Positions 10,451 to 58,326 of a stretch of 64,000 nucleotides of DNA are shown here, one piece after another. The notes beneath the pieces were generated by a model. That model did not search any database and had not been told where the DNA came from. It worked only from the letters and a program-made list of their open reading frames with translations. Each line of letters opens with the position of its first letter. Position 1 is the stretch's first letter. The DNA lies in NCBI GenBank assembly GCA_040285745.1, contig JAUFOR010000008.1, forward strand, positions 372,001-436,000. Direction: 5' to 3'. Source of the DNA: Barthelona sp. PCE. Lineage: Eukaryota. Both the position numbers and the translations under genes were made by a program.

Positions 10451-12229
10451 CTATAGAACAAGCGAAGCTGTGAGATTTACGAGCTCCTTTTCAATCTCAC
10501 TCAAGTTGGGAATAGCGTTGGAGTTCAGTGCAGAACGCATTTTTTCAACATTTTCTTGTTGTTTGGTGTCTAAATTCATCTTTTCGATGATAGAAAGGTC
10601 ACCCAGCAGCCGTGAGATCGTATCTTCTCTACTTTCTAACTTTTGTGTAAGAGCATCAATTTCAGATCTTGACATACCACCGCTACTCTTCACCTTGATC
10701 GACTTGGAGGCACCGCTAAACTTATCCTTGGCAGAAACATGCACAAAACCTGATGCGTCAATGGAAAAAGTAACCTCTATCTGGGCCATCCCCTTTGGCA
10801 TAGCAGGGATATCACATAATTGAAATTCACCCAGCAATGAGTTCTGCCCGGAGAAGACACTTTCTCCCTGCAGCACACGCACAGTTACCTGAGTTTGATT
10901 GTCTTCCACCGTTGTAAATGATTGCGATGAGGTGCACGGTACTTTTGAATTTCTCGCAATAATGGTACCCATGCGGCCGCCCTGGATCTCAATTCCGAGT
11001 GTAAGGGGGGCAACATCAAGCAAAAGAACATCGGAAACCTCACCACTAAGAATACCTGCTTGAATAGCAGCACCTTCAGCAACAACCTCATCAGGGTTGA
11101 CAGCCAGAGATGGCTTCTGGCGGAAGAAGGCCTCGACAGCCTCGCGTACAAGAGGCATGCGCGTTTGTCCACCAACTAACAAAACCTCATCAACTTCTTG
11201 AACTGAAAGTCCAGCATCGCTCATTGTCTGTTTGCAGCATTTCTTGAATGTGTCCACCAACACTGAAGACCGCGCCTCAAACTCGCTACGAGACACCGTA
11301 CATTCGACGTGGCGTGGCTCCCCGTCTACAAAACTAATAAATGGAACAGAGACCACCGCGGATGATGATTGTGAAAGGGAAATCTTTGCAGCCTCACAGG
11401 CTTCTGCCAGCCTTGCGATGGAACTAGGGGACGCTCTAATGGCATCAGCCAAGCTCTTATCGCATCGCTCAAGAACTATATCTGTGATTATTTTTGTGAA
11501 GTCTTCGCCTCCGAGGAATGTGTTTCCATGGGTAGCAACGACCTCATACACGTTGTTCGGGGTCAGACGCAGAAGCGTAACGTCGAATGTACCGCCTCCT
11601 AGATCAAACACCGCAATAATCTGATCAACATCCTTGCTCTTGATACCGTACGCTAATGCGGCTGCGGTGGGTTCGTTCAGTGTGCGGAGAACTTCAAGTC
11701 CCGCGATTTCACCTGCGTTTTTGGTCGCTTGACGTTGGGACTCATCAAAATAACTGGGGCAAGTTATGATTGCCTGCGTGACTTTCTCGTTCATTACTGC
11801 TTCAACACGCTCTTTCAGGTGCTGGAGCACATGGGCTCCAACCTCTACAGGTGACACAACATCGTTATTTGTTCTCTTTAGATGAGCGTCACCATGTTCG
11901 CTTTTGACAACTGAAAACGGTGTCTGAGAATCATAGACTGACACAAGAGGATCCTCAAATCTACGTCCAATAAGTCTTTTGGTGGCGAAGAAGGTATCTT
12001 TAGCATTCTGACTGGCTTGTCTCTGTGCCACTGATCCGACCAGTACTTGATCTCCCTTGAATGCAACGACCGAAGGAGTCGTGCGCGACCCCTCACTATT
12101 CTCAATGATTCTTGCTTTACCATCTTCAAAAACTGAAACGGCGCTGTTGCTTGTACCGAGGTCGACTCCCATAATCAAATCGCGCAGTACGCGCATAACT
12201 AGTTCCCTTTTTTTGAATAAAGTAAGCAT
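10451..12229 (-). CDS. Divergent mitochondrial/DnaK-type Hsp70 (candidate mitochondrion-related-organelle chaperone)
   Basis: GVDLGTSNS, IENSEGSRTTPSVVAF, FFATKRLIGRRFEDP, FDLGGGTFDV, NPDEVVAEGAAIQ, VLLLDVAPL. No EEVD or KDEL tail. Alternative start at 12196. Confidence 0.9.
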   Translation of the reverse strand: MLTLFKKRELVMRVLRDLIMGVDLGTSNSAVSVFEDGKARIIENSEGSRTTPSVVAFKGDQVLVGSVAQRQASQNAKDTFFATKRLIGRRFEDPLVSVYDSQTPFSVVKSEHGDAHLKRTNNDVVSPVEVGAHVLQHLKERVEAVMNEKVTQAIITCPSYFDESQRQATKNAGEIAGLEVLRTLNEPTAAALAYGIKSKDVDQIIAVFDLGGGTFDVTLLRLTPNNVYEVVATHGNTFLGGEDFTKIITDIVLERCDKSLADAIRASPSSIARLAEACEAAKISLSQSSSAVVSVPFISFVDGEPRHVECTVSRSEFEARSSVLVDTFKKCCKQTMSDAGLSVQEVDEVLLVGGQTRMPLVREAVEAFFRQKPSLAVNPDEVVAEGAAIQAGILSGEVSDVLLLDVAPLTLGIEIQGGRMGTIIARNSKVPCTSSQSFTTVEDNQTQVTVRVLQGESVFSGQNSLLGEFQLCDIPAMPKGMAQIEVTFSIDASGFVHVSAKDKFSGASKSIKVKSSGGMSRSEIDALTQKLESREDTISRLLGDLSIIEKMNLDTKQQENVEKMRSALNSNAIPNLSEIEKELVNLTASLVL

Positions 12230-36872: not shown

Positions 36873-37293
36873 TTATTCCTCTTCACGGCCCTTGATCTTG
36901 TTCATGATGATCTGGCGCTCACGAGCGTTGAGGGTAAGTTCGCGACCGTTCTGAGCTCTAAGAGTGGAAAGGAAACGCTTGTTGTAGAGGGAGCGAAGCT
37001 TGGAGCGACCGGTTTTGGGAGCTCTCTTCTCCATTTTGGGTGCATCAGGGCAAGAGTTTCTGACCTTACCAGTATGAGCGAGTGATCCGTGCTGACGAGC
37101 TAGGTGTTAGATCTGTAAACTGCAAAAAAGCATCATCGTTCTCAGAACCGTCCCCAGGTTATAACAGGAAGACAAAAAAAGCAAAGGGAAGAAACTAAAA
37201 AATTTCTTTCTGCTTATCTATGCCTCCAAATAAAATAGACTAAACCCATGCGTTTGTAACCGATTTAGATACTCTTTGATAATACATACCCAT
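36873..37293 (-). CDS. RPS30: 40S ribosomal protein eS30, 2 exons (37293-37290, 37099-36873)
   Basis: Spliced product MARQHGSLAHTGKVRNSCP...KTGRSKLRSLYNKRF. The start codon lies in an exon contributing only ATGG; the frame is restored by removing 37289-37100. Confidence 0.93.
37100..37289 (-). other. Spliceosomal intron in RPS30 (190 nt)
   Basis: GTATGT...ATCTAACACCTAG; phase 1. Confidence 0.9.
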
Positions 37294-37908
37294 TTTCTAA
37301 AAGTTCGATATTAGAAGAAAAAACAAAAGGAAGTGATTTACTGATTCACACTCTTTCCTTCCGTACAACATATGTCGGATAGTGCAAAAGACACTTCAGC
37401 AACATATATTTTCGAGGAAAATATGCTTTGTTGATAGTATTTGTTAGTATGTTTTTTTGCATGGTTTTCTGTTGCTTTTAAGTTGTTTCACTATGTTTAT
37501 ATGGTCATTTTATAGTCCAACATGACGTTGTGACATTGTTTATGTTCGTTAAAAATGTTTATGTTGGATTGTACTTTTCTGTACAATTAAAGGCATTGGT
37601 TGAACTTATTTTTGGGACTTGGGCTTGCTTTTGTATCCAAGTTAAAGGGATTTGGTTATTTCTTTTGGCAATTAGATGATGTAAATAGTATCGCATAAGA
37701 ATGTGATAAATGTGTCTGATTCACCTTGAAAAGTAAGGTAAACCTGTACGCTACATGTCAGTAAACTTGTGCATCAAAATAACATGTTTTAACACCTAAA
37801 TAATGTATATCAATATATTTGCTGGCTGCGTAGTGTTCATCCATCAACAAAGACACGAATCAATCAATAAATTTAGCATTAACAATGTATTTCACTTTAT
37901 ATCCTTTA

Positions 37909-38295
37909 ATGAAAGTTCTAGTTATATTGGCTGTATTCTTGTGCATTGCCGCGTGCCACCAGGACACTTCAAGGTTCTACAAAGGTTCTATCACAGCTTC
38001 AAAAGAAGAGAAATCACACACTTTTGCTGCACCTGTAGAAAACAAGTCCTCTCCACTTGCAATGGGTCTGAGCATGTTTGTCATAACCGCCACCCTCGCT
38101 GCTGTTGTTATCATTGGTAAACAGCACTTCACAATGAACCGTTTTGCCGTGAGACTTGTATTCTTATGTCTCAATATCTTTATCTTTGCTATGATTGTCG
38201 TTTACTGGTTGAAGTGGAACGCCTTCCAAGGTATGGCAGTGACCGTTCCTCTCATGCTTGTTTGGCATTTGTTATCAAAGTTTTTGATTAAATAA
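37909..38295 (+). CDS. Small membrane protein (signal peptide + ~3 TM)
   Basis: Hydrophobic N-terminus MKVLVILAVFLCIAAC followed by further hydrophobic segments. Confidence 0.7.
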   Translation: MKVLVILAVFLCIAACHQDTSRFYKGSITASKEEKSHTFAAPVENKSSPLAMGLSMFVITATLAAVVIIGKQHFTMNRFAVRLVFLCLNIFIFAMIVVYWLKWNAFQGMAVTVPLMLVWHLLSKFLIK

Positions 38296-38342
38296 GATTG
38301 AATTCTGTGTGAAAAACAGTAAAGTGAAACATATATTCTTGT

Positions 38343-41300
38343 TTACAATGATCTTAATGACACATTTTGTTTAGAAATAACTGTTAATGTAAAACTACGC
38401 TCATTTGAAGGTTCGAAAGTAAAGGGTACTATTAAAAAGTTACCTTTTGAAGGAATAATCATGGTATGGCCAATGATTTCACGACGATAAGCTATTTCTG
38501 AACATAAAATTTCATTACGGCTTTCAATTATGCGACCATCATGTGATGCATCCATTATATGAACTGAAAAACCCATCGCAACATGTTTCTTGCCCGTCAA
38601 ACGAGCATCTTCCTGTCTTAGAACAACATATACTTCACCTGGTTCATCAATAGTAAGTGCAAATTGAGGATTATGACGGAAAGTACCATAGTTGCTACAT
38701 CCACCAGCAGATTGTCCTCTCCACTCGGAGTTGATGATAACTTGGTTCCATTCAGAATTAAAAACCATTGTTACATACATATTTCTGAAGTATTTGGTTA
38801 TGTCTTCATATGCTATAAAAAATTCACCATCTTCAACATCCAATGTGTGACCGAGCTTCTTCAACAGTCTAGGGGTCCATCTACGGTCAACATCGGACCA
38901 ATTTCCTGTGTATTCGTAGCCACCAAGAGGGTTACGCAATTTTAACAATTTTGTTTGTCCAATTTCAACCAATGAGAGAACAGCATATGCATGTCTCGAC
39001 TGGATACCATCCTTTGTACTCACATCGCTTGAAAACGAACCAAGTGCAACAAGAAACCCACTCGAAAAATACTCCCGGATTTGTTTCCACATAAGACCCG
39101 TTACAAAGCTCTCGCTAACATCCTTGAAGTGAATGATTTCACCGAAGGAATTAGGTATCATATCTGCCAATGCATGACACACAACGCCCTTCTGAATCCG
39201 GTCAGCGCTGCCATACAACTTAGCATATGCCTTCTCAAGGATGGAGACCCATGGGTTCTCTTCGACAGAACAGCGACTTAGGACTAATTTCCCATCATCA
39301 TCCACGGGAAGTCGATCATCAACTGTTATTTCGTGTTCACCGTTTTTAAACACGACACGGTAGTACCCCTTATCTGGTATAGCGGCTCTGAAGACCTGCT
39401 CGACCAGCTGCGGATTTGTCTTTAATAAAGTGAACGCAGTTATTAAATAGCAAACACCAAGATGTTCGCTTTGGATGGGATCACCCTCTCCAAAACTGAT
39501 CTCTCCAGAAATCTCGTACATGTCACTGAATCGTGCCATTGTACAGTTCACATCCTCGGCTTCAAAGTCATAGACAAAATCATCTTCGAACTTTTCCTCG
39601 CTGTCTCTTACTCTCTGCATCTCTTCCTCCATGTCAAGCAAGGGCAAGGGAGATGGGCTAGCGACTGCGATGTTTGACTTTTTCTGATGAAGCTCATCAA
39701 TCTGATTGAGACATCTGTCCAGCTGCTGACCAACTGTGTTTCTAAGGTTCTTAAACTCACCCATTTGAATTAACTGGATGTTGATCAGTTCGGCTTCAGA
39801 TGGGTCGTCAGGGTTAAGCTTGCTAATTGAAGCTTGTAAATCACTGATCTTCAATTCTAGTTCATTATTTCTTGATATAAAGCCATCACGCTGAGCGGTG
39901 AGTGCATTGAGACCACTGTCTATATTAGACTCCATCTTCCTTACCTCATGCTTATGTACCTCATGGTTGATACTCTGTTCGAACTTACCCTTTATGAACT
40001 CTTCGTTCTGCATTTGATTCTCGAGGTTTTCCAGTTTAGTCTTCAGATCTGACGTTGTGATACTTGTCTGGAGATGCTCAATAATCTTCTGACGCTCCTC
40101 CTGTGACATTCTCTCGATATCATCAATGGTATAACTCTGACCTTCCTCTTCATCCGTCTGCTCACCCATTACTTGATTAACGTAATCTAAAATGATGAGT
40201 GCCTGCTCTTGGATAAGCGAAATACCACTGAAGAAGAGTCTGCTGAACAACACAGCACTGAAATCCAACCTTTGTTTGAATTTTTTGTGTATCGACTCAA
40301 TGATGTACCATCTTTGGAAGTCAACAGTTGTATTGTTCAGATCCTTTTTCTTCTGGATAATAAAATCATCAATGCTGTACACGTCATCAAACACCAAACC
40401 CGTGAGGTCATTACTTTCACTGTCTTCAATCTGTTGCAGTTGCGACTTGGTCTTGTCAATGTTGAGCGCCTTTGATGTAGTGTCTGTCTCCAGGTTGAGC
40501 ATACCCACAGACTTCTCAATGGCAAGATCGATCAATGGCCGGCTAACTACGTCTTCGATTTCATTATATTTAATGGAAAGTAAAAGCTTGAGATGTGTAC
40601 AATAATAAAGAATGAGAGAAAATGCTATGAAGAATGCAGCGCAACTCACCTGGAGTGGTTTCAAAAACACCATCGCAAACATGGACCAAGCAACCACTAG
40701 AACTAAACCACCAAACAAAAATAGGGGGTACTTTGAAATATCAAATACTCGACCAACACGAACATCGAACTCCAATAGAGGTAAGACGGAGTTGTTTGTG
40801 TAGCAGACATGGAATCCGTTGCTGGATAACAAAGGGAACTCTGCTAAACCAACAAGGATTAATAGCAAAACAAAAAGTGTCATTGTAATCGTTGTACCCC
40901 AGAAAATACCCTCACCTTGCATACCGATAATGATCGATAGGATCACAAGACCGACTGAACTGGTGATTGCAAGTGGTCGATTTTTGACTGGAATGTAGTG
41001 ATCATTAACAAAATATATTCTAAGAGTACGCACAAGTAAGAACACTAATAACAGTGATAGACCTGATCCTATTTGGAATAGAGCGTTCTTTCTAACAGAC
41101 ATTGAGCCGATCACAGCACCGATTATACTTAGAACACCAATTACGAGCATCTGGACACCTACAACAGTCTTGATTGCAAACGCCTCGGTGCGCCACAACG
41201 TAAACAGCGTCACAACATACACGATAAAGATGATTCCAGCGGAAACAGTCACCATAGAGTTGACTAAAGCCCATATTAAGAGTGAAATCAGACTTGTGAT

Positions 41301-42944
41301 TGAGCAAGTGATGACAAATGCATCTAGCTTAGTGGAGTACAGTAGGTGAACGACGAATCCACCACCCAAAACAATAGACAGGGGGAGGAAGAGAGGTGTT
41401 GACCAATACAGAACTCCATCAAGACCTACTAGTGCAACTATTACAGAAACCAGCATGATTGAAACAAATGCAATGGTGCAACGGATGAATTGAGTTCTTA
41501 TAAGCCGAATCATAGGATGCTCTGCTTTAAAAGAAAAATTCATGCGTTGAACACATACCAATGTACATCTACCCATAACGATAAGGGGGAAGAATGCAAT
41601 GCATTCGATTATGATCATGTACGAGTGTGTGATGATAAACAATGGAATGGCAATAATAATTGAAATAATTTGGGCAAATATATAGAAATACCAAAAATTC
41701 TTATACTGGCCAGTTTTTTTCTCTAAATTCTCTTTCTTTGTTGGGTGGAAAGAGGGGAAGTAGCGCCAAGTTATGTACCAGAGAACAAGCAAACCGCTGA
41801 GAAGAACACTACCTACTAAAAATTCCCATTGGTTATGAGAAGAATCAATCATTTTGATTTCCGGAGCAGAAATCCAATTAGGTTTGACGATTCCAAGCAC
41901 AACATCACCTAAATAAATGATTGTGAAAAGAATATAAACAATAATTGAATTATTCTGTTTTCCTGAACGTAATAATGAAGTTCTTGCAAAATTAATAATT
42001 GTATCGACTGAATTCTTCTTTTTCAATCGGATGATTTCACCTACAATTCGACTAAGTAAAAATGAAAAACCAAAGAAAAAGATTATACTGTGACCAATGA
42101 AAACATAATTATAAGAACTCATAACAAGCGAAAAACGAATAGCAATAAACATAGCAAACATCATGGCAGGGTTGGAACTGTAAATGTTTGTTGGAAATAA
42201 CATAATACTGATATCAAATAACAGCAACATAACACTAGTAAGAAGTGCAGTGTATTTAGCACCAGATTTATCAATATTATGATGTACAATAGAGTATACA
42301 ACGAGGACAACAACACTGAGGAAGTAATAGAACCATCCATTGGATTCTTTTTGTTTAATTCTTAAATCCTTAATGTCCAGATTATTTTGTAACAATTTTT
42401 TCATTGTTATTTTGGGTAAATCTATTCTTTTTGTAAAGAAAAAGTATAAGAAATATGTGTTAAGACTTAGAAAAACAAAACTTAATGACATATAGGAATA
42501 CTGATCAGCAGTAACTACAATGTAAAAAAAGAATGCATATACAACACATAATGCAATAAAAACTGCAATTTTGCTAATGAAAGTTGTGATGAACTGCTTG
42601 GAAATAGATAGAACAAGCCATAATAATAATATTATTGTTGATATGATCATTGCAAAATGCATAAACAGAAATGCATCTGGTTTAATGTCAGACGCTACAA
42701 TATTTACCAGGAATATCACCAAGAATCCGACTGAAAAAACAATAGATACGAGTTGCAAGAAATACATTAATGCACTCATTTTAAAGAATTTTCTAAACGT
42801 CTTACCCTCAGTAAAACGACCCTTGATCTGCTTTAAAATATTTAAAAAAGGAAACAAGAACAATACTGCAAGAGTCAAATATTTCAATACAAGAGTAGAC
42901 CATTCATCGCGACCGATAAATGTTTCGGTTGTGAGGACTCCCAT
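38343..42944 (-). CDS. Multi-pass membrane calpain (DEK1-like: TM region, linker, CysPc, domain III)
   Basis: About 20 hydrophobic segments, then LGVCY, TVDDRLP, WVSILEKAYAKLYG, HAYAV, LRNP, W.G.SAGGC...NPQF, IVPFTFEP. Confidence 0.92.
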   Translation of the reverse strand: MGVLTTETFIGRDEWSTLVLKYLTLAVLFLFPFLNILKQIKGRFTEGKTFRKFFKMSALMYFLQLVSIVFSVGFLVIFLVNIVASDIKPDAFLFMHFAMIISTIILLLWLVLSISKQFITTFISKIAVFIALCVVYAFFFYIVVTADQYSYMSLSFVFLSLNTYFLYFFFTKRIDLPKITMKKLLQNNLDIKDLRIKQKESNGWFYYFLSVVVLVVYSIVHHNIDKSGAKYTALLTSVMLLLFDISIMLFPTNIYSSNPAMMFAMFIAIRFSLVMSSYNYVFIGHSIIFFFGFSFLLSRIVGEIIRLKKKNSVDTIINFARTSLLRSGKQNNSIIVYILFTIIYLGDVVLGIVKPNWISAPEIKMIDSSHNQWEFLVGSVLLSGLLVLWYITWRYFPSFHPTKKENLEKKTGQYKNFWYFYIFAQIISIIIAIPLFIITHSYMIIIECIAFFPLIVMGRCTLVCVQRMNFSFKAEHPMIRLIRTQFIRCTIAFVSIMLVSVIVALVGLDGVLYWSTPLFLPLSIVLGGGFVVHLLYSTKLDAFVITCSITSLISLLIWALVNSMVTVSAGIIFIVYVVTLFTLWRTEAFAIKTVVGVQMLVIGVLSIIGAVIGSMSVRKNALFQIGSGLSLLLVFLLVRTLRIYFVNDHYIPVKNRPLAITSSVGLVILSIIIGMQGEGIFWGTTITMTLFVLLLILVGLAEFPLLSSNGFHVCYTNNSVLPLLEFDVRVGRVFDISKYPLFLFGGLVLVVAWSMFAMVFLKPLQVSCAAFFIAFSLILYYCTHLKLLLSIKYNEIEDVVSRPLIDLAIEKSVGMLNLETDTTSKALNIDKTKSQLQQIEDSESNDLTGLVFDDVYSIDDFIIQKKKDLNNTTVDFQRWYIIESIHKKFKQRLDFSAVLFSRLFFSGISLIQEQALIILDYVNQVMGEQTDEEEGQSYTIDDIERMSQEERQKIIEHLQTSITTSDLKTKLENLENQMQNEEFIKGKFEQSINHEVHKHEVRKMESNIDSGLNALTAQRDGFISRNNELELKISDLQASISKLNPDDPSEAELINIQLIQMGEFKNLRNTVGQQLDRCLNQIDELHQKKSNIAVASPSPLPLLDMEEEMQRVRDSEEKFEDDFVYDFEAEDVNCTMARFSDMYEISGEISFGEGDPIQSEHLGVCYLITAFTLLKTNPQLVEQVFRAAIPDKGYYRVVFKNGEHEITVDDRLPVDDDGKLVLSRCSVEENPWVSILEKAYAKLYGSADRIQKGVVCHALADMIPNSFGEIIHFKDVSESFVTGLMWKQIREYFSSGFLVALGSFSSDVSTKDGIQSRHAYAVLSLVEIGQTKLLKLRNPLGGYEYTGNWSDVDRRWTPRLLKKLGHTLDVEDGEFFIAYEDITKYFRNMYVTMVFNSEWNQVIINSEWRGQSAGGCSNYGTFRHNPQFALTIDEPGEVYVVLRQEDARLTGKKHVAMGFSVHIMDASHDGRIIESRNEILCSEIAYRREIIGHTMIIPSKGNFLIVPFTFEPSNERSFTLTVISKQNVSLRSL

Positions 42945-43011
42945 TTATGAAATTGACTCAAAAATAAAGTTGAAAGGAAAGTGATAATCAAAAACATCTC
43001 TTTTTTATTAA

Positions 43012-44015
43012 CTAGGCTTTGCTCTCTACTTCATCGGACTTAGTAGGGTTCTCGAAGGCATTCTTTTGTAAATTTCTACTATGTCTAACGTTTCTTAATA
43101 ACTCAGTACACAAACTAACCTTCACTAACGTTTGTTCAATACTGTCCTTAAATGATTCATTGAAATCTTCTGTCAAAATGTGACTGTGTTGTAACAAAAC
43201 ACTTAATAATTCTTGTCCTAATTGACTATCTTCTACACTAGGACCTTCAGATACAAGATCAACCAACATTTCTTTAGCGTAAGTTAAATATTCACGCAAA
43301 GAAGAAATATCAGAACGAATCAGATCAATGGCACTCAGACGATCTGTAGATTTTGGTAACGAATCAACGTCATTATCTTCATAGTTCTTCATAATAGAAA
43401 TTGCCAATGCTTGAGAAGCAGGAATATGACGACGTAAATCGATAGGAATCCACTGAAGATCCTGAGAATAATCATGCTGATCAGCGTTCTTAAGTTTTTC
43501 ATACAAATCATAGGTAATTGAATGTGCAATAATGGGAATATCAAGTGTCTCAAGCGTTGTGTCAAGATGAACGTGAACAAGGACTTTTAAAGGACCTACA
43601 ATGTCACGGAATGCGTTGGCAAGGCCACCAACAATCTTGCTATCAAATGAACCAGTTGTATAAAAACCTAAAACTGAAAGATTAGTATGCATAATCAAAT
43701 CCATGGCGGTTGAAACGGACTTGGAGAATTGGATCTAAATGTTAGTGTAACTTTTTGTTGGGAGTTAAAACGGATGAATTCAAATATCATTGCGAATTAA
43801 CTCAAAATGCATACGTTGCTCTCAGTATCGTCAGACGAACTAAAAACACAGGCATAGCTGGAAACAACAGTGATGGCGTTGTTTATAGCAGCATTACCAA
43901 CCAAGATGCCGCAAACGAGTGGAGAATCGACTTGTCGAACCTTAAAATGATCAAGAATGTGAAAAATTGGTGTAGCTTCGATAGAGATGTACGGAACTAA
44001 GGGATTCTGTAGCAT
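43012..44015 (-). CDS. EIF3F: Translation initiation factor eIF3 subunit F (MPN-), 2 exons (44015-43815, 43734-43012)
   Basis: IFHILDHF..R....V.G.LVG, VLGFYTTG, HVHLDT, D..LG..L...EDF. Removing the intron joins two ORF-track fragments in frame. PSMD7/CSN6 is a less likely alternative. Confidence 0.75.
43735..43814 (-). other. Spliceosomal intron in eIF3f (80 nt)
   Basis: GTATGC...ACTAACATTTAG; phase 0. Confidence 0.9.
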
Positions 44016-44419
44016 TGTCAAAGTGTGAAAGTGCGAAAAGGAGTAAAAAATGCTTTTGCAATGGTTTAGAACAGTACAGAATTGCTGTACGCTATTGTGT
44101 CGCAGATACAGTGTGGAACGTTGTCTTAAATATTTGCTAAATTCAGTTTGTTGAAGCATTTTTGATTTCAGAAATTTACTACTGTTTGTTACAACAGTTT
44201 GGAATTATACCGGGGTAAGATGCCACAATACATGAATTAATCGTTTATAAAACGTCATTCTGTTGGACAGGTAAACACACCAAGTGTGGTGAAAATCTAG
44301 TGTTTTTATGTAGACTAGGGGTCACAACTTTCACATAATACCCAATTTATAAGTGAAATACGCTTCATAACGATTTTGGATGCTGTATTCTATTTCTCAC
44401 ATCCTTTCAATCATCCTTT

Positions 44420-46015
44420 ATGATAACCACGCTTAGAAGTTTGCTCGATGCACATTTAACGCGAGCGGCTTCATCAATCCAAACAGCTATTGACGAAACT
44501 CATCGACAGATAGATAGTATTCGTCATCAAAAGCAAAGGGACATTCAAGAGCTGAACGTTTATTTAGCCAAGCTTTCGCGTAGTATCGAAAAAGGCTCTG
44601 AGTTACCTATAGCCCCATCCTCCTTAACAATCCCCAAACCAGCGCCATTAAAGCCTATCACATTTTCCCCAAGGGAGGACACAGAGAGATTGCGCCCTTT
44701 GCGTAGAAAAACTAGAACTAGCCTTCGAGATTCAATGTTTGAAGATGTGGATGATGATGATACCGATTCTGAAGAATCAAGTGAGGAACTGAGTGACCCA
44801 GAAGAAGAAAACATCAGCATTTCACCCCCTAAAAGAACGAACGGAGGTATTTCCATGGATTTCTTGAGGGAACAAATTGATGAAGATGAAGATGTGTTAA
44901 GCGAACCAGAAGATTCCCGTTTAGCTGAAGGCTTGGTGGAACTAGAAGTGAGAGTCAATGAGAGAGATGATTTAACAGCTATTGATAACACAGACTGGCA
45001 TCCTAAAGCTGATCAACGAGTTTCTTTCATTTTAACAACAGAACAACAGGATATGCTGTCAATAATAGAAAAGAAGAAGAAGAAGGATGTAGAACGTATG
45101 AAACGTGAGAAAGAAAAAGAAGATTTAATGATGGAATTCGCTTTGTATGGTGGTGATGCCAAAAAAAAAAGAGAATTATTAGCTAAACTAGATGCTCTTG
45201 AAACAGAAGGTACTACAGTTGTTGAAGAAGCCTTTGAAGAAGCTATAGAAGAAGCTGAAGAAACTGAAAAGGTTGAAATATCTACTGAAGAAGAAGACAT
45301 GATTAGCAAAATTATGGAAATGCATTTAGAATTAAGTGATGTGATAGATCATTTCTCTGCATTAGATTTAACTGATGAATTGCAACAAGCAACAGAGATT
45401 AAAAAATCGCATAAGAATTCACGTTGGTTGTTTGGATCAAGTTTGAATCACAGTTTAAAGGATACAGAAATGTTAGTACTCAGTTTAGCACAATCTATTT
45501 TTGTTCATAATGAATTTAATGATCGTATTCTCGCTAATGTTTACTACAATCTGACTGATGATATAAATATACCACCTTTCCCACATAGTAATTGGGAAAG
45601 TATAGGTTTTCAAGGTGATGATCCCGCCACTGATTTTCGTGGTGTTGGTATTTTTGGTCTGTTACAATTATTCTTTTTTTCCAATTGCAGTAATGCCAAA
45701 AAATGTTTAGAAATTTCAAAAGAAAGAATTATTCCTTTTACTTTGGTTAATTTTAACATAACTAGTTTATTACTCAATTGTTTACGTTCTGCAGACCTAT
45801 ATAAATTAATTAATACACAATATAGGTCGTCAGGTAACCCAGGTATCATCATATCAGTGTTAAATGATCTACATTTAGGTTGTTGGTTATATCTTTTAGA
45901 AAAAGGTGATCAGTTCAGCTTTACGGCATTTTCTGAATTAAAGAATGAGATCATTGAACATTTAAAGAGTAATCCGGAACGAATTTTTAATTTGGCTCAA
46001 GAATTTGAGCAGTAA
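44420..46015 (+). CDS. ELMO-domain (ELMOD) Arf/Arl GAP
   Basis: WESIGFQGDDPATDFRGVG.FGLLQL, PF....NIT; acidic N-terminal half. Confidence 0.9.
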   Translation: MITTLRSLLDAHLTRAASSIQTAIDETHRQIDSIRHQKQRDIQELNVYLAKLSRSIEKGSELPIAPSSLTIPKPAPLKPITFSPREDTERLRPLRRKTRTSLRDSMFEDVDDDDTDSEESSEELSDPEEENISISPPKRTNGGISMDFLREQIDEDEDVLSEPEDSRLAEGLVELEVRVNERDDLTAIDNTDWHPKADQRVSFILTTEQQDMLSIIEKKKKKDVERMKREKEKEDLMMEFALYGGDAKKKRELLAKLDALETEGTTVVEEAFEEAIEEAEETEKVEISTEEEDMISKIMEMHLELSDVIDHFSALDLTDELQQATEIKKSHKNSRWLFGSSLNHSLKDTEMLVLSLAQSIFVHNEFNDRILANVYYNLTDDINIPPFPHSNWESIGFQGDDPATDFRGVGIFGLLQLFFFSNCSNAKKCLEISKERIIPFTLVNFNITSLLLNCLRSADLYKLINTQYRSSGNPGIIISVLNDLHLGCWLYLLEKGDQFSFTAFSELKNEIIEHLKSNPERIFNLAQEFEQ

Positions 46016-46054
46016 ATGTGCTTTGTTTTTTTTTTCCTACTTTCTTAATTTTTT

Positions 46055-48289
46055 ATGGTTCTTTTACATCCTCCGCCACGTAAATTTCCGTCATGGAAGA
46101 TTGTAACACAGTGTGATGGTTTAAAAGAACGTTTTGAAAACTGTATTGAAAATTTCATTCAGGAGTTGAAGATTGAAGAGCCATCTTTCGCTTACACTGT
46201 TGCAGATTTTCACGCCATGTGGGTTTACTTGGTAGAAGCAAGCGATTATTATCTTGGTCGTTTTGGACATTTTCGTCATCTTACAAAGAAGATACCGTTT
46301 GAATACTTCATAGATTTCGACAAGGGTGATGGGATAATATGCCGACACATTCTAGGAAGTTTCTTAGACTTTATTGAAGAGAGAAAACTAGATTTGAGTG
46401 AACTTTCTGAAATGATTAAACAGAAACCTAACATTACCAATAGTGATCAAAGGATGCTTGCAGCAAATGAGAATTTCACTCAACATCTCATTCGGCGGTT
46501 CAATCTTCCTATTGGAAGTGATTATGTGGAAGCTTCGTATCAAATTGGTTTAGCAAGCAGTTTAGCTCCATACGAACCAATTGATATTGTTGAATTCCCT
46601 GAAGAAGAGGTTCCTGCATTCATCGAGTGGTCGCGTGATTTGTATCAAAGTTTGAAACAACAAAAATATATTGCAACATACAAAATTTTCATTGAAGAAG
46701 ATGTTTTGCCCATTCACAAGGCTCTTATTCAACAGGCATGTCACTCAATGCAAGTTCCTATTGTCACCGATCGCCGTGAGGCAACGCATATTCTTCTTAG
46801 TGATACTCTAACTAGTTGTGGTGAGTGGAACGAGGTTGATTTTTACAGTGTTGAGTTCTCAAAGTTCAGAAGTGAACAAGAGCTACGAGTAAGCTGGTGG
46901 TATTACCCCGATAGTTACGATGTGTTCCTTCCACAGTTTTTTTTCGTAAGGCAGACTATTAATGGTAAGCAGTACAAGATGTTGGATTTGAAGAAGTTGC
47001 GTAAGAGCAATTATGATGTTCTCCGTGAGGCAAAGAAGGGAAGGAGACCAAAAGATAGAGTTTTGCGTGATAAGAACAACGTTCGTCGTACAAAAAGATC
47101 AGTAACTAACGTTCGTTGTCGTTGGATACTTGACTGGTTTTACTTTAACGAGGAGGTATCCTGTTTTGACTATGAAGAAATCCTACCTGAACTCAAAACA
47201 TCGCATCTAAAGCAGGAAAAGAAGCAAAGACAAGACGCCCGTTATGAAGAAATGGTTCCCGTCTTGGAACAGCCAGTACATTCTACACCAGGTGTTGGTA
47301 TCCCAGTACCGCACAAGATGGGGCTGGTTTCCTACGTCCCTAATGTCGTTTTGTCGGAAGACAGCTTAATCAAGACTTTAGTTGACGTTAAGGTCAACCC
47401 ACATTTGAATGCTGCGAAACAGGTATCACAGATCGAATATGTAACACCAGAAATTGCTTCTTGGTTTAACCCAGATAGTGTGAGTGAGGTTGAGATTAAG
47501 ACATTAGGTATTAAGGGTGCTGTAGAATATAACCGATATCGCAAAGTGCGTAACTTTTGTGTATCAGCGTACAGAATGAACCCAAGTATCTACTTCTCAG
47601 TTACAGCTGCACGTAGAGCATTGAGTGTTGATGTTAACTACATTTACAAAGTCCACTGCTTCTTAGAGCGTTGGGGTTTGATTAATTACAGTGGTGGACG
47701 TCAATTACCCAATCCACAACAACGTGTACCTAAATTGGTTGTTACTGACAATGAGTTGAACAGACAGCAACGTACATTAATGCGTTACACTTCAGAGAAG
47801 GTAAAATTAGTTCAAGAGTATTTTGAAAAAAATGTGCATGAAGATCATTCTACTCTTACTGAATCAGACTGGAAAGCTATTGCTCAGGAATTGGATATGG
47901 TGGTAACTGATTTGAAAGTAATTTTCTGTGGTAGCTTTACGAATGCCAATCATGAACCTAAGTTACCTGAAGATTCAACTAAGATGGAACAAGCTGATAT
48001 CAGTCGAGATGTTTCTGAAGTTTCGAAAGAAATTGATGAGGAGATTCGTGATGCTGTGTATTCCACAATTCATCAAGAAGTTCAATTATTAAATGATAAA
48101 ATTCAGACTTTTTCTGATCGCTCCAATCAGATGGAGAAGTATTTTAATCAATTGAGAATGTATGAGAATAGACTGATGGATAAAGCCATTGAATTACGTA
48201 AGCGTGAATTAGTAATTGAAGAACTTGAATCAAAGTATGCGAAAGAAGAGGAACAAAACGATTCTGAAATGATGATGATTGATGAGTAA
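46055..48289 (+). CDS. SMARCC: SWI/SNF subunit SMARCC/SWI3
   Basis: SWIRM domain (SWF...V.E.E, Y...RNF....YRMNP..Y.SVTAARR, VHCFLERWGLINY), N-terminal WYYPDSYD and RWILD...FNE, C-terminal leucine zipper. Confidence 0.88.
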   Translation: MVLLHPPPRKFPSWKIVTQCDGLKERFENCIENFIQELKIEEPSFAYTVADFHAMWVYLVEASDYYLGRFGHFRHLTKKIPFEYFIDFDKGDGIICRHILGSFLDFIEERKLDLSELSEMIKQKPNITNSDQRMLAANENFTQHLIRRFNLPIGSDYVEASYQIGLASSLAPYEPIDIVEFPEEEVPAFIEWSRDLYQSLKQQKYIATYKIFIEEDVLPIHKALIQQACHSMQVPIVTDRREATHILLSDTLTSCGEWNEVDFYSVEFSKFRSEQELRVSWWYYPDSYDVFLPQFFFVRQTINGKQYKMLDLKKLRKSNYDVLREAKKGRRPKDRVLRDKNNVRRTKRSVTNVRCRWILDWFYFNEEVSCFDYEEILPELKTSHLKQEKKQRQDARYEEMVPVLEQPVHSTPGVGIPVPHKMGLVSYVPNVVLSEDSLIKTLVDVKVNPHLNAAKQVSQIEYVTPEIASWFNPDSVSEVEIKTLGIKGAVEYNRYRKVRNFCVSAYRMNPSIYFSVTAARRALSVDVNYIYKVHCFLERWGLINYSGGRQLPNPQQRVPKLVVTDNELNRQQRTLMRYTSEKVKLVQEYFEKNVHEDHSTLTESDWKAIAQELDMVVTDLKVIFCGSFTNANHEPKLPEDSTKMEQADISRDVSEVSKEIDEEIRDAVYSTIHQEVQLLNDKIQTFSDRSNQMEKYFNQLRMYENRLMDKAIELRKRELVIEELESKYAKEEEQNDSEMMMIDE

Positions 48290-48320
48290 AGACAATTAGA
48301 TTTATTTGTAAATACACTAG

Positions 48321-49529
48321 TTAGTATTCAGGGTAACTGCTGGAATATCCAATGGAACCTTCCATTGTACTGTGGAAGTCAAATGTAAGCTTCTTAGGAT
48401 CTTCCCAAGGGAATTCATTACGACCAAAATGACCGAAACAACTGGTAGGTGTGAAAATAGGACGTTGTAAACCGAGATCACGAATAATACAACCGGGGCG
48501 AAGATCAAAGTTATCGGCTACAATTTGTGTGAGGAGCTCATCATCAAAGCGACCAGTACCATAACTGTCAACGAAAACACTTAAAGGTTGAGCTAAACCA
48601 ATAGCATAAGAGATTTGAACCATGATACGTGTGCATAATTGAGCATGAACCAAAGACTTGGCGATCCAACGGGCAGCATAAGCAGCAGAACGATCGACCT
48701 TTGTGGCATCCTTTCCTGAAAAAGCACCACCACCATGGGCTCCCCAACCACCGTATGTGTCAACAATGATCTTACGGCCGGTGAGACCAGCGTCAGCGGC
48801 GGGACCACCAAGGGTGAAACGACCACTTGGGTTAATGTGATAGATTGTCTCCTCATCAAACATATCGCGAGGAAGAACAGAGGTGATGTGAGGCATAAGT
48901 GCTTCACGAATTTCTTCGTTTGTAACATTATCCTTGTGTTGTGTACTGACAAGAACGGTGTGAACTCGGATGGGAATGGGGTTAGAGTTCTCATAGAGAT
49001 ACTCAACTGTGACCTGAGACTTACAGTCAGGTAATAACCACTCGACTTCACCTGATTCTCTCAAGTCAGCAAGAAGCTTCACAATCTTTTGGGAAAGAAC
49101 ATATGAGAGAGGGAGTAGTTCCTCAGTTTCGTTGCAAGCGTAACCAAACATGAGACCCTGATCACCAGCACCAAATGTTTCAGCGTTCTTAGCAACGTGA
49201 ACAGCGTTGGCAATCTCTTGAGATTGTTGTTCGATGTAGACATCAACTGCACATGTGTCACAGTTAAGGCCGGACTCATCACTGATAAATCCACACTCAC
49301 GGGCGGCTTGACGAGCGACAGCCTCGAAATCAACTTTGCTATCAGTAGATATCTCACCCAAAAGGATGATTCTGTTGCCCTTGGTAGCTGTCTCGCATGC
49401 AACGCGAGAATTGGGATCGTCTTTTAAGCAAGCATCGAGAACAGCATCGCTTACTCGATCACACATCTTGTCAGGATGACCGAGACCCACAGCTTCAGAA
49501 GTAAACAAAAATGATCTGACGGAAGGCAT
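48321..49529 (-). CDS. MAT: S-adenosylmethionine synthetase
   Basis: FTSE, GHPDK, GAGDQG, GLTGRKIIVDTYGG, GGGAFSGKD..KVDRSAAY. ATG at 49529. Confidence 0.97.
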   Translation of the reverse strand: MPSVRSFLFTSEAVGLGHPDKMCDRVSDAVLDACLKDDPNSRVACETATKGNRIILLGEISTDSKVDFEAVARQAARECGFISDESGLNCDTCAVDVYIEQQSQEIANAVHVAKNAETFGAGDQGLMFGYACNETEELLPLSYVLSQKIVKLLADLRESGEVEWLLPDCKSQVTVEYLYENSNPIPIRVHTVLVSTQHKDNVTNEEIREALMPHITSVLPRDMFDEETIYHINPSGRFTLGGPAADAGLTGRKIIVDTYGGWGAHGGGAFSGKDATKVDRSAAYAARWIAKSLVHAQLCTRIMVQISYAIGLAQPLSVFVDSYGTGRFDDELLTQIVADNFDLRPGCIIRDLGLQRPIFTPTSCFGHFGRNEFPWEDPKKLTFDFHSTMEGSIGYSSSYPEY

Positions 49530-49833
49530 TTTTTGACACGTAAAGTGTTGAAAAGGTGAAAAAAGTTCAAAAAAGAAAGATACTGACTTTTTCATATACC
49601 TCTTTGAAAAAAGTAGTCAGAAAGCACAGAACCCGGAGCTCTGAGTGGATAGAATCTTTTGTACATACATTTTTGGTTGAAATATTTTTTCAAAGATTTG
49701 AAGCAGTTTTGTCACAAAATAACAGTTAAAGTACTTATAAAAGTACGAAAACAGCCTGGGAGATGAGGTTATAGATTTTTTCGCTAAAGTTTCACTTTTT
49801 TTATGGAATTTGAAGATAAAACAAGGAACAATT

Positions 49834-50694
49834 ATGGGAACACAGTCTTTTAAGCGCAATTCACTCCTTCATTTAAGAAGATTGTTAAGCATTTTATGCA
49901 AATCACCTGTATTTTTATTCTTCATCACTTTATTAATTGGGCAAGGTACATATCTGATTGCTATGATTGAAGATTCTCGCATTGTCACAAACAAACCGGT
50001 CGAAATCTTTTCAAAAGGCTATACCTTTCTTGTAGTTTTAGTTGTTATTATCTGTTTCTTTGGGCAGATAATTCCCTTGTTGTTTTCAACACACGAGCTC
50101 TTTTATCTCACCCAGCAAGACAGGATACCATGGTTTGCACTTACTATTTTAATGTGTATCTATATTGCATTTGGTTTACGTTTGTGGTTTGTTAAGAGCA
50201 TCCCTCCGTTCGGAACCGTCGAGTCCAAGCGATTCATGGTGACATGTGTTATATATGGATCAATTTTGTTATTTGTATTTCTTTACACCTGCATGTTTGT
50301 GTGGTTTGATAATGATAAAGAAAGTATATTTGTGCGCTGTTACACAATTTTCCTTGGATTGCTATTTATTTTAGCAATATTTTTCATTGTTAAAACATGG
50401 AAACACCAACAAAGATTGCAACGAATTGCTCAAGTACGAAATAATTCAGCACGTCGTTCAAGGAAGAGTACATATCAACCAGGTGTCATCACATCTGACA
50501 TATTAGAAAACGGTGGACTTCCTCAAGTACAAAATCCCCTTCATCAACAAGTAGATATGACTTCTAAATTTAAGAATGCACGTATTTTAGATACGGAGGA
50601 GTACGAGGAGAAACAGAGACAGCAGGTAATTGATAGACAGAATGCTGTTATAGATTCAATTGTTAAGAACCATATAACCCGAAAGGAATACTGA
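49834..50694 (+). CDS. Hypothetical 5-TM membrane protein
   Basis: Five hydrophobic segments and a charged tail; first ATG at 49834. Confidence 0.7.
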   Translation: MGTQSFKRNSLLHLRRLLSILCKSPVFLFFITLLIGQGTYLIAMIEDSRIVTNKPVEIFSKGYTFLVVLVVIICFFGQIIPLLFSTHELFYLTQQDRIPWFALTILMCIYIAFGLRLWFVKSIPPFGTVESKRFMVTCVIYGSILLFVFLYTCMFVWFDNDKESIFVRCYTIFLGLLFILAIFFIVKTWKHQQRLQRIAQVRNNSARRSRKSTYQPGVITSDILENGGLPQVQNPLHQQVDMTSKFKNARILDTEEYEEKQRQQVIDRQNAVIDSIVKNHITRKEY

Positions 50695-50697
50695 TCA

Positions 50698-51264
50698 TCA
50701 TCGTCCAGAAAAATGTTCATCTCTGTATTTAGCATATATAGAATGTTCACCAAATATTTTTGGTACTTTTATACTTTCAGTTGTTGGAACTTCTTCTTTT
50801 TCAGTTTGATCTGAGTATTGTTCTATCAATTTTCCAATTTTTAGCAATTCTTCAAGATTCTTTCGCTCTAGTTCAGCTCTATCTTGTAGAATTTCAATAG
50901 CTTCCTTTTTTTGTTCATCTTGCTGTTTTGGAATGATTTTTTGTTGTACTGCAACACAGTTTAGATCTGCAATATAATCAGAAGTTTCAACATCAGTTCG
51001 GACCGAAAAATATTGCAAACAACGTGGGCATTTCATTACAAACCGAAAAGAGCTTAATCCCATATAAGCATTCTGTATCTTTTCTTTTTTTGCATATAAT
51101 CGTGTACCCCTTCGAATAAATTCATCACAATTCAAACATTTAACAGTGATCGGGACATCAATCCTGGTTGAAATATTAGATTTCTTAGATTTTGTTTTTC
51201 TTTTCAATCGTGCATATTCAAATCCCTTCGGCAGATATTTTGATGCACCCTTTCGCTCACTCAT
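50698..51264 (-). CDS. YJU2: Splicing factor YJU2/CCDC94
   Basis: MSERK...KY.P..F, C..C.EFI..G....AKKE, Y.G...FRF..KCP.C, TD....DY. Confidence 0.9.
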   Translation of the reverse strand: MSERKGASKYLPKGFEYARLKRKTKSKKSNISTRIDVPITVKCLNCDEFIRRGTRLYAKKEKIQNAYMGLSSFRFVMKCPRCLQYFSVRTDVETSDYIADLNCVAVQQKIIPKQQDEQKKEAIEILQDRAELERKNLEELLKIGKLIEQYSDQTEKEEVPTTESIKVPKIFGEHSIYAKYRDEHFSGR

Positions 51265-51456
51265 AATGGTTTAAAACTCTGAAAAAGTTAATAAAGTCCC
51301 AAACGATGTTTTGTCATTTTTAACCTTTCTCAGACAAACAATTTCATTCACGAGTGAGAACTGTTGCATAATAGCCATTTCCTTTGAGTTATATATTGTT
51401 TTGTTATAGTTTTTTTTGTTACTTTTTTTTTCTGGTTTGTTGCAAGCATTTGATTG

Positions 51457-52104
51457 ATGTATAAAATATTTAAAGTTGTTGAAAATTATTTGAGACTTTT
51501 TCCTGCTGGAAATGAGGAGAAGATGTATCTATATCGGAAAAAAATGTATTTTCGATTTTTTATACTTCATGTTACATTTGTTGTTTTTAGTTTGTTGAGT
51601 TCCATCACGTTGGGCATCGAGAACACAAGTTTCACAAGTCTAATTAGTGTTATAGTATGCTGCACTATTTCAACTTTTTTTTTCTTATTTGTATTACCTC
51701 TTGCATTTTATTTCCCTCCTTCTGATGTCAAATATGCACGAAAAGCAATGAAGAGGCGGCATATAAACATGGTTCATCTCACAGTGTGTTCAATTCTTTT
51801 AAGTTGTGTTGTACGCAATTTTATTAATTTTTATGACAGTTGGTATGCTTTAGAAGATGTTTTACCATCATCAGTGAAGATTATAGTTACAGTTATTAGT
51901 GTGATTGATATAGCATTTAGTATACACTTTGTTAAAGACATATATTACTTACTTTCATCGGTTTTATTTATAGTGAGTAATGTTTATGATACATTCAGTT
52001 TAAATCAAACAAAAAGTAATTTTGAAACTGTTTTATTTGAAGTTGAAGAAGAAGAAATAGACACACCTGATCGTTATGGAACTTTACATTCACCAAGTAT
52101 TTAA
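51457..52104 (+). CDS. Hypothetical multi-pass membrane protein
   Basis: Several hydrophobic segments; start uncertain. Confidence 0.65.
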   Translation: MYKIFKVVENYLRLFPAGNEEKMYLYRKKMYFRFFILHVTFVVFSLLSSITLGIENTSFTSLISVIVCCTISTFFFLFVLPLAFYFPPSDVKYARKAMKRRHINMVHLTVCSILLSCVVRNFINFYDSWYALEDVLPSSVKIIVTVISVIDIAFSIHFVKDIYYLLSSVLFIVSNVYDTFSLNQTKSNFETVLFEVEEEEIDTPDRYGTLHSPSI

Positions 52105-52119
52105 TAATTCAAATTTCTT

Positions 52120-52827
52120 CTATAAACGAACTTCCATCTTTTCTGTAACAACTGTTGTAACTTTGTTAGGAACACGTTGTAAAAGGTTACAAAAATCTTC
52201 ATAGCATACTTTACCAACATTTTGTGTATCAGCTAGTTCAATTGTCTTATCAACCATCTGCTGAAGCTCAATATCTCCTAAATTGTTGCCAACCATCATC
52301 TTTAGAACCTGGAAAAGTTCTCCGTTTGAAATATACCCATCATTGTCGACATCATATACAGAAAAACAGAAACGTAACTTATCTTCTGGATCAGCTCTTG
52401 GTGAGAAGATTGAGAACACTCTAACGAACTCTTCAAAGTCAACTGATTCATCATGGTTCTTATCTAATAGACTCAATAACCTTTGTCTTAATGGATTCAT
52501 AGAGAAATCTAAATATTAGCATGTAAACATGGTGACCATTGTATCATCACATATTTGGGCCCTTTTTATCATTTAACTGTGTAAATACTTCAAAAAATTA
52601 TGAATGAAAAACAACCAATGAAAAAAATAACTACAATGTGATGTATATGCCCAAAAAATCATACTTGGGATCTGGAGGAACTCATCACCGGTCAGCCCAC
52701 CGCTGGCGTCCTTATCAAGAACAGAGAAACTGTTCCAAAGCTTTTCAATTTCTTCAGCACTGAGTTCAGATTCAGCTTGCAGCTGAGAGATTTCGTCGTT
52801 CGTTAATACACTTGCTTCGGCGCCCAT
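52120..52827 (-). CDS. CNB1: Calcineurin regulatory subunit B, 2 exons (52827-52665, 52508-52120)
   Basis: MG myristoylation start, four EF-hands, GYISNGELFQVLKMMVGNNL. The spliced junction reads QIPNFSMNPL. Confidence 0.95.
52509..52664 (-). other. Spliceosomal intron in calcineurin B (156 nt)
   Basis: GTATGA...GCTAATATTTAG; phase 1. Confidence 0.9.
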
Positions 52828-57333: not shown

Positions 57334-58326
57334 CTATTGAGCCTCTTCAAGGGCACGGTATACAATTTCATCAAGTGATTCATGCTCAGAAGAAATCCAT
57401 GCCTGAAGTTCATACTTAATTTGACTTTGTTTCATACTGTAAAGTACTTCTTGTATTTCATCACAATCACAGACATCCTCACGAGCCAATAAGTTATCCA
57501 CCAGTCTTATATCACGTTCGGTGAAGTGCCGCCAATTAAGTGTTGCAGGTGTATCAAGTTGGAGCCATTTAAGTGTTTGTATACTATAGTCGTGATAGTA
57601 TGTTCTAGAACTGGGATTGTATTTGTATGAGAGGAAAATTTGAACACCATCAGGGTCACAATCCATCAAGCCAAACGCAGGTATGCCTAATGTTCGTTGC
57701 AAATTACAACAAAAACTTCTTGTGCTTAGGTCAGGGTATCCACAAGCCGTGACAAGTAAGAAATCATTCTTAATTCTAGTTTTGTTCAAAGCATGAAAAG
57801 TTGCTTGGTTTTCAATAATGATCATTGCTTTTGCTTTGTTTATGACATTACGCATACCAGATGGATTTAAAGGAACAGAGCGCGGTTCCCCACTGTAACT
57901 ATCTCCGTCAATGTGGATTGGTCCAGCTACAAAACCCTTAGGCGCGTTAAAAATGTTCAGTTGTGAGCGACATGTTTGTAAGTAGTTGGAGACCATTTGG
58001 ATTGCTTTGTCACTGCATTTTTGAGTACCATACAGAGACACATGTGTGTAGTATAACTCACGCTTTGTCATGTATCTTTCTTCTTCAAGTAGGTTGTAAA
58101 CTATTGCGAGAGTGTGCACGAATACGATCCATTTTCGGTTCTCAGATGCGGTTTTACCTGGAGTTATGGTGCTTTTTCTAATATTATCGATATCTGGGAT
58201 CCATCTGTTATGTCTAAAAATTGGTTTTTGACTTATAATAGGTATACTCAGAATAACTGTCTCTTCCATATGTATGCAATCCGCTATCGATTCAAGAGTG
58301 AGTTTAAGATGAGTTGCAGGATCCAT
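57334..58326 (-). CDS. SPO11: Meiotic recombination protein Spo11 (TopoVIA family)
   Basis: TKRELYY (catalytic Tyr), R..LNI....KG.VAG, IIE...TF, T..GYPD..TR, DCDPDG, KYELQA. Confidence 0.93.
   Translation of the reverse strand: MDPATHLKLTLESIADCIHMEETVILSIPIISQKPIFRHNRWIPDIDNIRKSTITPGKTASENRKWIVFVHTLAIVYNLLEEERYMTKRELYYTHVSLYGTQKCSDKAIQMVSNYLQTCRSQLNIFNAPKGFVAGPIHIDGDSYSGEPRSVPLNPSGMRNVINKAKAMIIIENQATFHALNKTRIKNDFLLVTACGYPDLSTRSFCCNLQRTLGIPAFGLMDCDPDGVQIFLSYKYNPSSRTYYHDYSIQTLKWLQLDTPATLNWRHFTERDIRLVDNLLAREDVCDCDEIQEVLYSMKQSQIKYELQAWISSEHESLDEIVYRALEEAQ

Follow-up and report, generated by a model that had tools for sequence, protein, structure and literature searches.

Introns of Barthelona sp. 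PCE with a presumed branch point fused to the acceptor at near-fixed spacing

When a few introns of one DNA stretch all end in what appears to be a branch point joined directly to the acceptor, is this an accident of a few genes or a property of the genome, and by what would such an end be recognized? The question is raised by a 64,000-nucleotide (nt) stretch of Barthelona sp. PCE, a small-genome, free-living anaerobic protist (contig JAUFOR010000008.1, positions 372,001 to 436,000, or G000:C8:372001-436000 in our own coordinates; hereafter the window). An earlier reading of the window, made from the sequence alone, had described introns in the genes for the ribosomal protein RPS30, a putative eIF3f and calcineurin B (CnB), in each of which a presumed branch A is followed by exactly 7 nt up to the end of the intron.

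The three introns of the window

The observation of three introns with fused ends is confirmed at the level of sequence (Table 1). All three start with GTATG and end in CTAAY-NN-YTAG with exactly 7 nt after the presumed branch A, and coordinates, homologue gap and public gene models agree with the sequence-only reading on this point. The bare motif does not occur above chance, as CTAAYNNYTAG has three matches in the window against 1.54 expected and at least three in 23 of 100 shuffles; the case is therefore built on context, each motif closing a non-coding gap within a conserved gene. At the CnB locus the alignments of all five homologue queries (5/5) show an exact gap of 52 codons, and the spliced protein of 183 amino acids is identical to the public model P0001, as the 307-amino-acid product of the spliced MPN-domain gene is to P0121. 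Both entries carry the source name Barthelona sp. PCE and are predicted models, hence no independent proof of splicing. Exon 2 of RPS30 aligns in register with the beginning of the Pfam profile Ribosomal_S30 (PF04758); in the unspliced DNA a stop lies immediately upstream in the same frame. The acceptor of this intron is clear in itself, and its donor has a rival, a second ATG-G|GTTTAG, from which an intron of 146 nt would run to the identical acceptor.

The naming of the MPN-domain gene as eIF3f is likely to be right, in that its closest predicted structures are eIF3f-like (TM 0.55), although the label is not settled because the closest feature match is a proteasome subunit. Rpn8 or CSN6 is also possible, and a PDB sequence search did not name the gene. 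With a widened motif, no fourth credible coding-region intron was found among the 38 open reading frames (ORFs) of at least 100 amino acids in the window, in agreement with the earlier count of only three introns in about 40 genes, and this density is typical of the genome sample described below.

Table 1. Exons, introns and fused 3' elements of the three intron-containing genes (positions in the window)
Feature	Position	Strand	Remarks
RPS30 exon 1 (ATG + one base)	37290..37293	-	donor choice not unique
RPS30 intron, 190 nt, GTATGT..CTAACACCTAG, phase 1 after ATG-G	37100..37289	-	
RPS30 intron, fused branch/acceptor element, presumed branch A 37107	37100..37110	-	
RPS30 exon 2	36873..37099	-	Pfam PF04758, E 6e-15
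MPN-domain gene (eIF3f-like; Rpn8/CSN6 also possible) exon 1, 67 codons	43815..44015	-	
MPN-domain gene intron, 80 nt, GTATGC..CTAACATTTAG, phase 0 after codon 67	43735..43814	-	spliced product = P0121
MPN-domain gene, fused branch/acceptor element, presumed branch A 43742	43735..43745	-	
MPN-domain gene exon 2, 240 codons + stop	43012..43734	-	
CnB exon 1	52665..52827	-	
CnB intron, 156 nt, GTATGA..CTAATATTTAG, phase 1 in codon 55, in-frame stop	52509..52664	-	homologue gap; spliced product = P0001
CnB, fused branch/acceptor element, presumed branch A 52516	52509..52519	-	
CnB exon 2	52120..52508	-	

Spacing and consensus beyond the window

Judged from the samples of the genome that we tested, the fused end with a near-fixed spacing of 7 nt holds well outside the window, if slightly more loosely than had been claimed. 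The window and 600 kb of adjoining DNA (664 kb in all, with 356 ORFs of at least 100 amino acids) were scanned without regard to motif, each GT..AG pair being scored on coding gain only to avoid circularity. Eleven of the 12 loci with a gain above 16 have an acceptor of the form YTNAYNNYTAG, with the A at position -8; the twelfth, a 38-nt "intron" at C8:557115, was rejected as a 1-nt frameshift. Distance histograms also peak at 7 nt. For GTATR donors with a gain of at least 4, YTNAY stands at this distance from 22 acceptors, as opposed to 2-10 at each of 22 other distances, a peak that is lost in the background with looser thresholds or with any donor, and for non-coding CTNAY..YYTAG with an upstream donor the count at 7 nt is 16, the 13 other distances having 0-2 occurrences each. 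With a looser YAG end, 7 nt accounts for 30 non-coding matches and 9 nt for 38; a 9-nt class was nevertheless rejected, 33 of its matches coming from a single 420-bp tandem array.

Across the whole genome, two 7-nt patterns exceeded their reversed-pattern controls (29 vs 9 and 54 vs 23 matches), and a free-spacing pattern matched 319 times vs 412 times for its control, a background-dominated result with no excess. The first 100 of these 319 matches, falling into 92 loci with 111 candidate rows, were assessed at any spacing by whether splicing joins ORFs, and 8 further loci were taken from the 7-nt pattern. Among the matches listed, CTAAY candidates joined ORFs in 14 of 27 cases at 7 nt and in 5 of 84 at other distances. 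Three of these five are alternative readings of loci that also have a 7-nt solution, leaving locus L048 and a TBL1-like gene (L076), whose intron (G000:C2:1362476-1362518) ends in CTAACATTTTAG with a spacing of 8 nt and is the only credible exception among the matches listed; a 20-codon exon 1 is followed there by an exon 2 that begins at residue 21 of TBL1X. Eight further of the 27 listed 7-nt candidates look real by hand inspection, and the cases accepted in this way comprise EF-1alpha twice, a gene that we take to be RPL22-like, an ORF-joining case, an intron splitting the ATG and introns of 5' untranslated regions (UTRs). Rejected candidates include L067 and L082, at 7 nt, which have a purine-containing tail ending in CAG and lie within ORFs, and L040 and L041, which are a repeat near contig ends.

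It might be objected that motif-led intron finding has itself produced the fixed spacing and conceals a sizeable class of introns with other distances: our sets of 21 and 42 introns were selected with a 7-nt pattern, the free-spacing genome search showed no excess, and one 8-nt case is known. We regard this as very improbable, given that the motif-blind scan, the histograms and the any-spacing ORF test peak at 7 nt unprompted and that the sole rival peak owes 33 of its 38 hits to one array. Some findings do weigh against a strict rule. The motif-blind scan is useful for its top 12 loci only, lower ranks being mostly noise (22 of 99 rows flagged), and it missed a real intron of alpha-tubulin and is blind to UTR introns, so that it may have passed over a minority of introns spaced otherwise. 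L048, with 16 nt, passed the ORF filter and was set aside as doubtful because its protein is implausible, and the 8-nt intron of the TBL1-like gene may reflect slack in the rule or a misassembled run of T. The claim of a fixed spacing genome-wide thus stands as near-fixed and not as absolute. We hold the architecture itself, a fused branch and acceptor at near-fixed distance, to be very probable.

The consensus was drawn from a contiguous set, in which 21 of 39 candidates were kept by coding gain and a sensible product, and from a set of 42 that adds 21 introns from targeted loci and is biased to GTATG and CTAAY; position statistics refer to 41 introns. In the contiguous set the branch motif is CTAAC in 8, CTAAT in 5, CTTAC and CTCAC in 2 each and TTCAC, CTCAT, CTTAT and CTGAC in 1 each, and the donor is GTATG in 14, GTTTGT in 3, GTATTT in 2 and GTATAA and GTATAT in 1 each. 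GTATG with CTAAY, as proposed from the window, is therefore too narrow a motif: CTAAY is absent from 8 of the 21 introns and 7 of the 21 start differently, so that the genome-wide scan for GTATG...CTAAYNNNYAG which had been suggested would miss many introns. The real element, as far as these alignments define it, is GTWT(G)...YTNAYNYYTAG, with 11 nt at the 3' end. Position -5, left free by the search patterns, is a pyrimidine in 41 of 41 introns; a pyrimidine at -4 was demanded by two of the patterns, and the motif-blind top loci nonetheless end in YYTAG. Positions -7 and -6 are mostly C (27/41) and A (23/41), and of the 42 tails 17 read ATTTAG, 7 TTTTAG and 6 GTTTAG, with a TAG end in 41. The absence of a separate polypyrimidine tract, also noted earlier, is borne out, the pyrimidine share being 0.50 at -26..-12 vs 0.56 in mid-intron and 0.50 in non-coding DNA (41 introns); three pyrimidines lie inside the fused element itself. 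A weak excess of G upstream of the branch (16/41 at -17 and 14/41 at -15, vs about 6 at the positions beside them) could be fortuitous or mark a longer pairing with U2.

Introns of the contiguous set are 38-190 nt long and follow first exons of 3-235 nt, and most introns are found either in a 5' UTR or no further than 250 bases into the coding sequence. Homology places the variant forms as well: in centrin (GTATAT, CTCAC) the exon boundary falls between residues 54 and 55 of centrin-2, and in CFAP97 (GTATAA, CTTAC) the exons match profile positions 1-34 and then 36-99. In gamma-tubulin, RPS16, Arf and Not3, exon 2 starts a few profile positions in, as short first exons predict. The intron positions in gamma-tubulin, RPS16, centrin and TBL1 look ancient, which we state as our assumption. 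Two introns, that of alpha-tubulin and one in a 5' UTR, were added later; the 664 kb hold 23 credible introns, or about 0.065 per ORF, which extrapolates to about 350 genome-wide. Internal stems, which shorten long introns in the Giardia/Trichomonas type, appear weak here, with z-scores of -3.5 to +1.0 for 11 introns of 77-190 nt, 3 of the 11 at or below -2.5 and the window introns at -1.5, -1.9 and -0.2.

Proposed reading of the element by the spliceosome

We propose that Barthelona, as an intron-poor barthelonid, probably has spliceosomal introns of the ordinary major class (U2-type), the 3' end of which would have shrunk to the 11-nt element Y-T-N-A-Y-N-Y-Y-T-A-G. In the window and elsewhere in the genome they are GT-AG introns whose removal restores a conserved reading frame. 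U12-type introns, in which the branch distance is likewise short and constrained, have an RTATCCTT donor and a TCCTTAAC branch; neither appears in our donor and branch tallies, U11 and U12 not having been searched. A U2 small nuclear RNA (snRNA) was found at L001:1501-1673 (G000:C1:606049-606221) with 51.7 bits, the Rfam cut-off being 46; it carries the standard GTAGTA, and the branch motif is complementary to it. This gene has two tRNA genes nearby, and the part of the RNA that presumably pairs with U6 has one extra base and altered letters. The genome also encodes a U2AF65 orthologue (L163:1180-2301, minus strand; E 5e-21 to human U2AF65), and loss of this factor is accordingly rejected as an explanation for the lack of a pyrimidine tract. 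In the orthologue a short basic N-terminus replaces the long RS region, and a W-containing motif is present that we take to resemble the U2AF35-binding one.

According to this proposal, 5'-GUAG of U2 would pair with YUN(A)Y and bulge the A at -8, and since the G of U2 can pair with C or U, this would explain the pyrimidine after the branch A. The three pyrimidines before the AG could serve the retained U2AF65 as the vestige of a pyrimidine tract, in which case branch and acceptor would probably be read in a single step. With just 7 nt between branch and AG, the AG could dock after branching without looping out, and the spacing might act as a ruler that compensates for the loose branch sequence. 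Most likely, the lineage came to this state while it was losing introns. For the reading of the element by U2 and U2AF we have considerable, though not full, confidence.

A different view of the same conservation is that the element is merely an extended acceptor consensus read by U2AF, with true branching further upstream, for which the TTTCAG acceptor consensus of C. elegans offers a parallel. The looseness of YTNAY, the at least equal conservation of the YYTAG tail, the retention of U2AF65 and the placing of the branch A at -8 by position all speak for it. We nevertheless think it most unlikely, as the letters conserved in the element (T at -10, A at -8, Y at -7) are compatible with pairing to the GUAG of this genome's own U2, no other conserved A or motif is present at -30..-12, and many introns are just 37-48 nt long.

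Further points count against the U2/U2AF proposal. The junctions are placed by ORFs and homology, and the branch A by position. U1 had no match, and U6 was not found either, though both must exist in some form. For U6, the Rfam match (E 0.25) is unconvincing, one pattern had 0 matches, and a pattern predicted from the U2 sequence had 8, all inside long open frames and none of them U6 by Rfam. Neither Slu7 nor Prp18 had a match in the genome, both being weak negatives in so divergent a genome; Yju2, the positive control for this search, was found, and the blanks may reflect sequence divergence.

A connection between the fixed spacing and the absence of Slu7 and Prp18 is at best tentative. Here and below, published work is cited from those portions of each source that were available to us. 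In yeast, Slu7 is dispensable at branch-AG distances below 9 nt, which fits a P complex with seven ordered nucleotides (bioRxiv 10.1101/212811). On the opposing side, C. merolae is described as having neither Slu7 nor Prp18 and yet long, non-fixed spacings (PMC10158995), and the spacing of Yarrowia is shorter (PMC2483917), so that 7 nt is no geometric minimum. We therefore offer only as a speculation, and one that we consider less probable than its negation, that Slu7 and Prp18 were lost while U2AF65 and about 350 introns were kept, the acceptor being chosen purely by its distance from a loose branch. On this account, Barthelona would have the -8 position in common with Giardia, Trichomonas and Entamoeba invadens because spliceosome geometry, in the form of the seven ordered P-complex nucleotides, had led to it repeatedly by convergence, here in a free-living cell and not as a by-product of parasitism.

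Other lineages and minor features of the genome

The signal is of a known kind, newly seen in barthelonids, and provides a free-living and comparatively intron-rich case of a probable convergence. Reports of a fixed branch-AG distance without a pyrimidine tract cover Trichomonas, Giardia and Yarrowia, where it is taken to be convergent (PMC2483917), and three features of the fused class of Irimia and Roy (2008) were found in Barthelona: an anchored branch, with the one 8-nt exception, no pyrimidine tract and low intron density. For barthelonids we found no published description in the literature covered, mainly open-access main texts without supplements; PMC11316075, in the portion available, mentions "intron" once, in its methods.

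By sequence comparison, the introns of Barthelona work like the Giardia/Trichomonas system in that they are of the same architectural class and of another sequence type. Shared with Giardia and T. vaginalis are a GTATG-type donor, the branch joined to the acceptor, the lack of a pyrimidine tract and a low number of introns (PMC2483917, PMC6679479, PMC10711314), as well as the spacing of 7 nt, for which the earlier appeal to these two parasites agrees with PMC2483917; in T. vaginalis, moving the branch abolishes splicing (as cited in PMC6679479). In the parasites, however, the sources give 4 nt, ACAC, between TACTAAC and AG, with tails of the type ACACAG/RCAG and branches of the type CTRAC/ACTAAC, whereas the tail of Barthelona is pyrimidine-rich and its branch a loose YTNAY. 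Their sequence type (CTRACACACAG; ACAC/ACRC before AG) does not occur in our 42 intron tails. Barthelona is moreover free-living, and its long introns appear to fold only weakly. To speak of a "minimal" splicing code, as had been done, overstates the case, because several hundred introns (the extrapolated figure of about 350) compare with 3 to 65 in the parasites (PMC5874029), 8-65 being the range for Giardia and Trichomonas, U2 keeps GUAGUA and U2AF65 is present.

The introns of Spironucleus vortens, RCTAACAARHTAG, likewise have a fused element ending in TAG and are short and 5'-proximal, with cases in start codons and 5' UTRs (PMC6679479); they differ in a spacing of usually 8 nt, that of the single Barthelona exception (PMC6679479, PMC10711314), in a GTAAGTY donor and in having, upstream, an AAC(Y)3-4R motif with no evident counterpart in Barthelona (PMC6679479). 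In Entamoeba invadens the branch is at -8 in 81% of 904 introns and one base further in 17%, and GTTTGT, the donor used by 3 of our 21 introns, is the rule there; this is, however, an unrelated amoebozoan parasite with the branch AYTRAY (bioRxiv 10.1101/2022.06.08.495308). Yarrowia lipolytica and other yeasts are intron-poor and have an anchored branch point without a pyrimidine tract, but at 2 nt in Yarrowia (on the scale of the source) and 3 to 8 in others, and with a strict TACTAAC (PMC2483917).

Could the 7-nt element have been inherited from a common ancestor of parabasalids, barthelonids and fornicates, only the tail having drifted from ACACAG to AYYTAG? The spacing and the GTATG donor are common to Trichomonas, Giardia and Barthelona, the C and A that prevail at -7 and -6 in Barthelona would fit, and barthelonids are free-living metamonads placed as sister to Fornicata (PMC11316075). 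The explanation is conceivable, and we consider it rather doubtful: introns of the oxymonad Streblomastix are described as lacking the motif (PMC1501061), S. vortens has 8 nt, the intron-rich Kipferlia (124,912 introns, PMC5874029) is placed between Barthelona and Giardia, a -8 branch evolved also in E. invadens, and Irimia and Roy favour convergence (PMC2483917). Monocercomonoides, for comparison, has 31,693 introns (PMC6759080). The earlier label "metamonad-type" is thus apt for the host, which is a metamonad, and is unproven in the inheritance that it implies, given oxymonads without the motif and the separate occurrence in E. invadens and yeasts.

With Barthelona, the few eukaryotes known to have a fixed branch-acceptor distance now include a lineage placed between parabasalids and diplomonads, and as it is free-living and has hundreds of introns, such spacing is tied neither to parasitism nor to a mere handful of introns. 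Introns in these numbers also provide enough cases to ask whether the element was inherited or repeatedly evolved, and whether it is coupled to loss of Slu7 and Prp18. Because most of them sit upstream of, or early in, the coding sequence, the 11-nt rule can be used to find introns and to check gene starts in this genome. A 36-nt intron at L020 (G000:C1:796791-796826, minus strand) splits the start codon itself (A|TG), and 5' UTR introns of the same type are present at L085, L068, L099, L060 and near G000:C8 601969, three of them at most 2 nt from the ATG. Sequence like that upstream of beta-tubulin recurs at C2:147028 and C2:815045.

Among the intronless genes of the window are those for the splicing factor Yju2 (50698-51264), Spo11/TopoVIA (57334-58326) and an Hsp70 (10451-12229), all on the minus strand, the last of which we take to be mitochondrial-type from its appearance. 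The frameshift near G000:C8 557100 (minus strand) lies in a very long cysteine-rich repeat gene and is probably due to an assembly error in a run of C. A short repeat unit that begins GTATGTACTGTTCC and mimics an intron is shared by L040 and L041, which lie close to two contig ends (the end of C1 and the start of C2). The tandem array on the contig of the window (L110:2213-9084; G000:C8, about 244.2-251.1 kb) consists of 16.4 copies, 98% alike, of the 420-bp unit, each with a copy of tRNA-Ala(AGC) cut off in the T-arm; an adjoining intact tRNA-Ala has the upstream sequence in common, and the array is, by its sequence, a tRNA-derived satellite.

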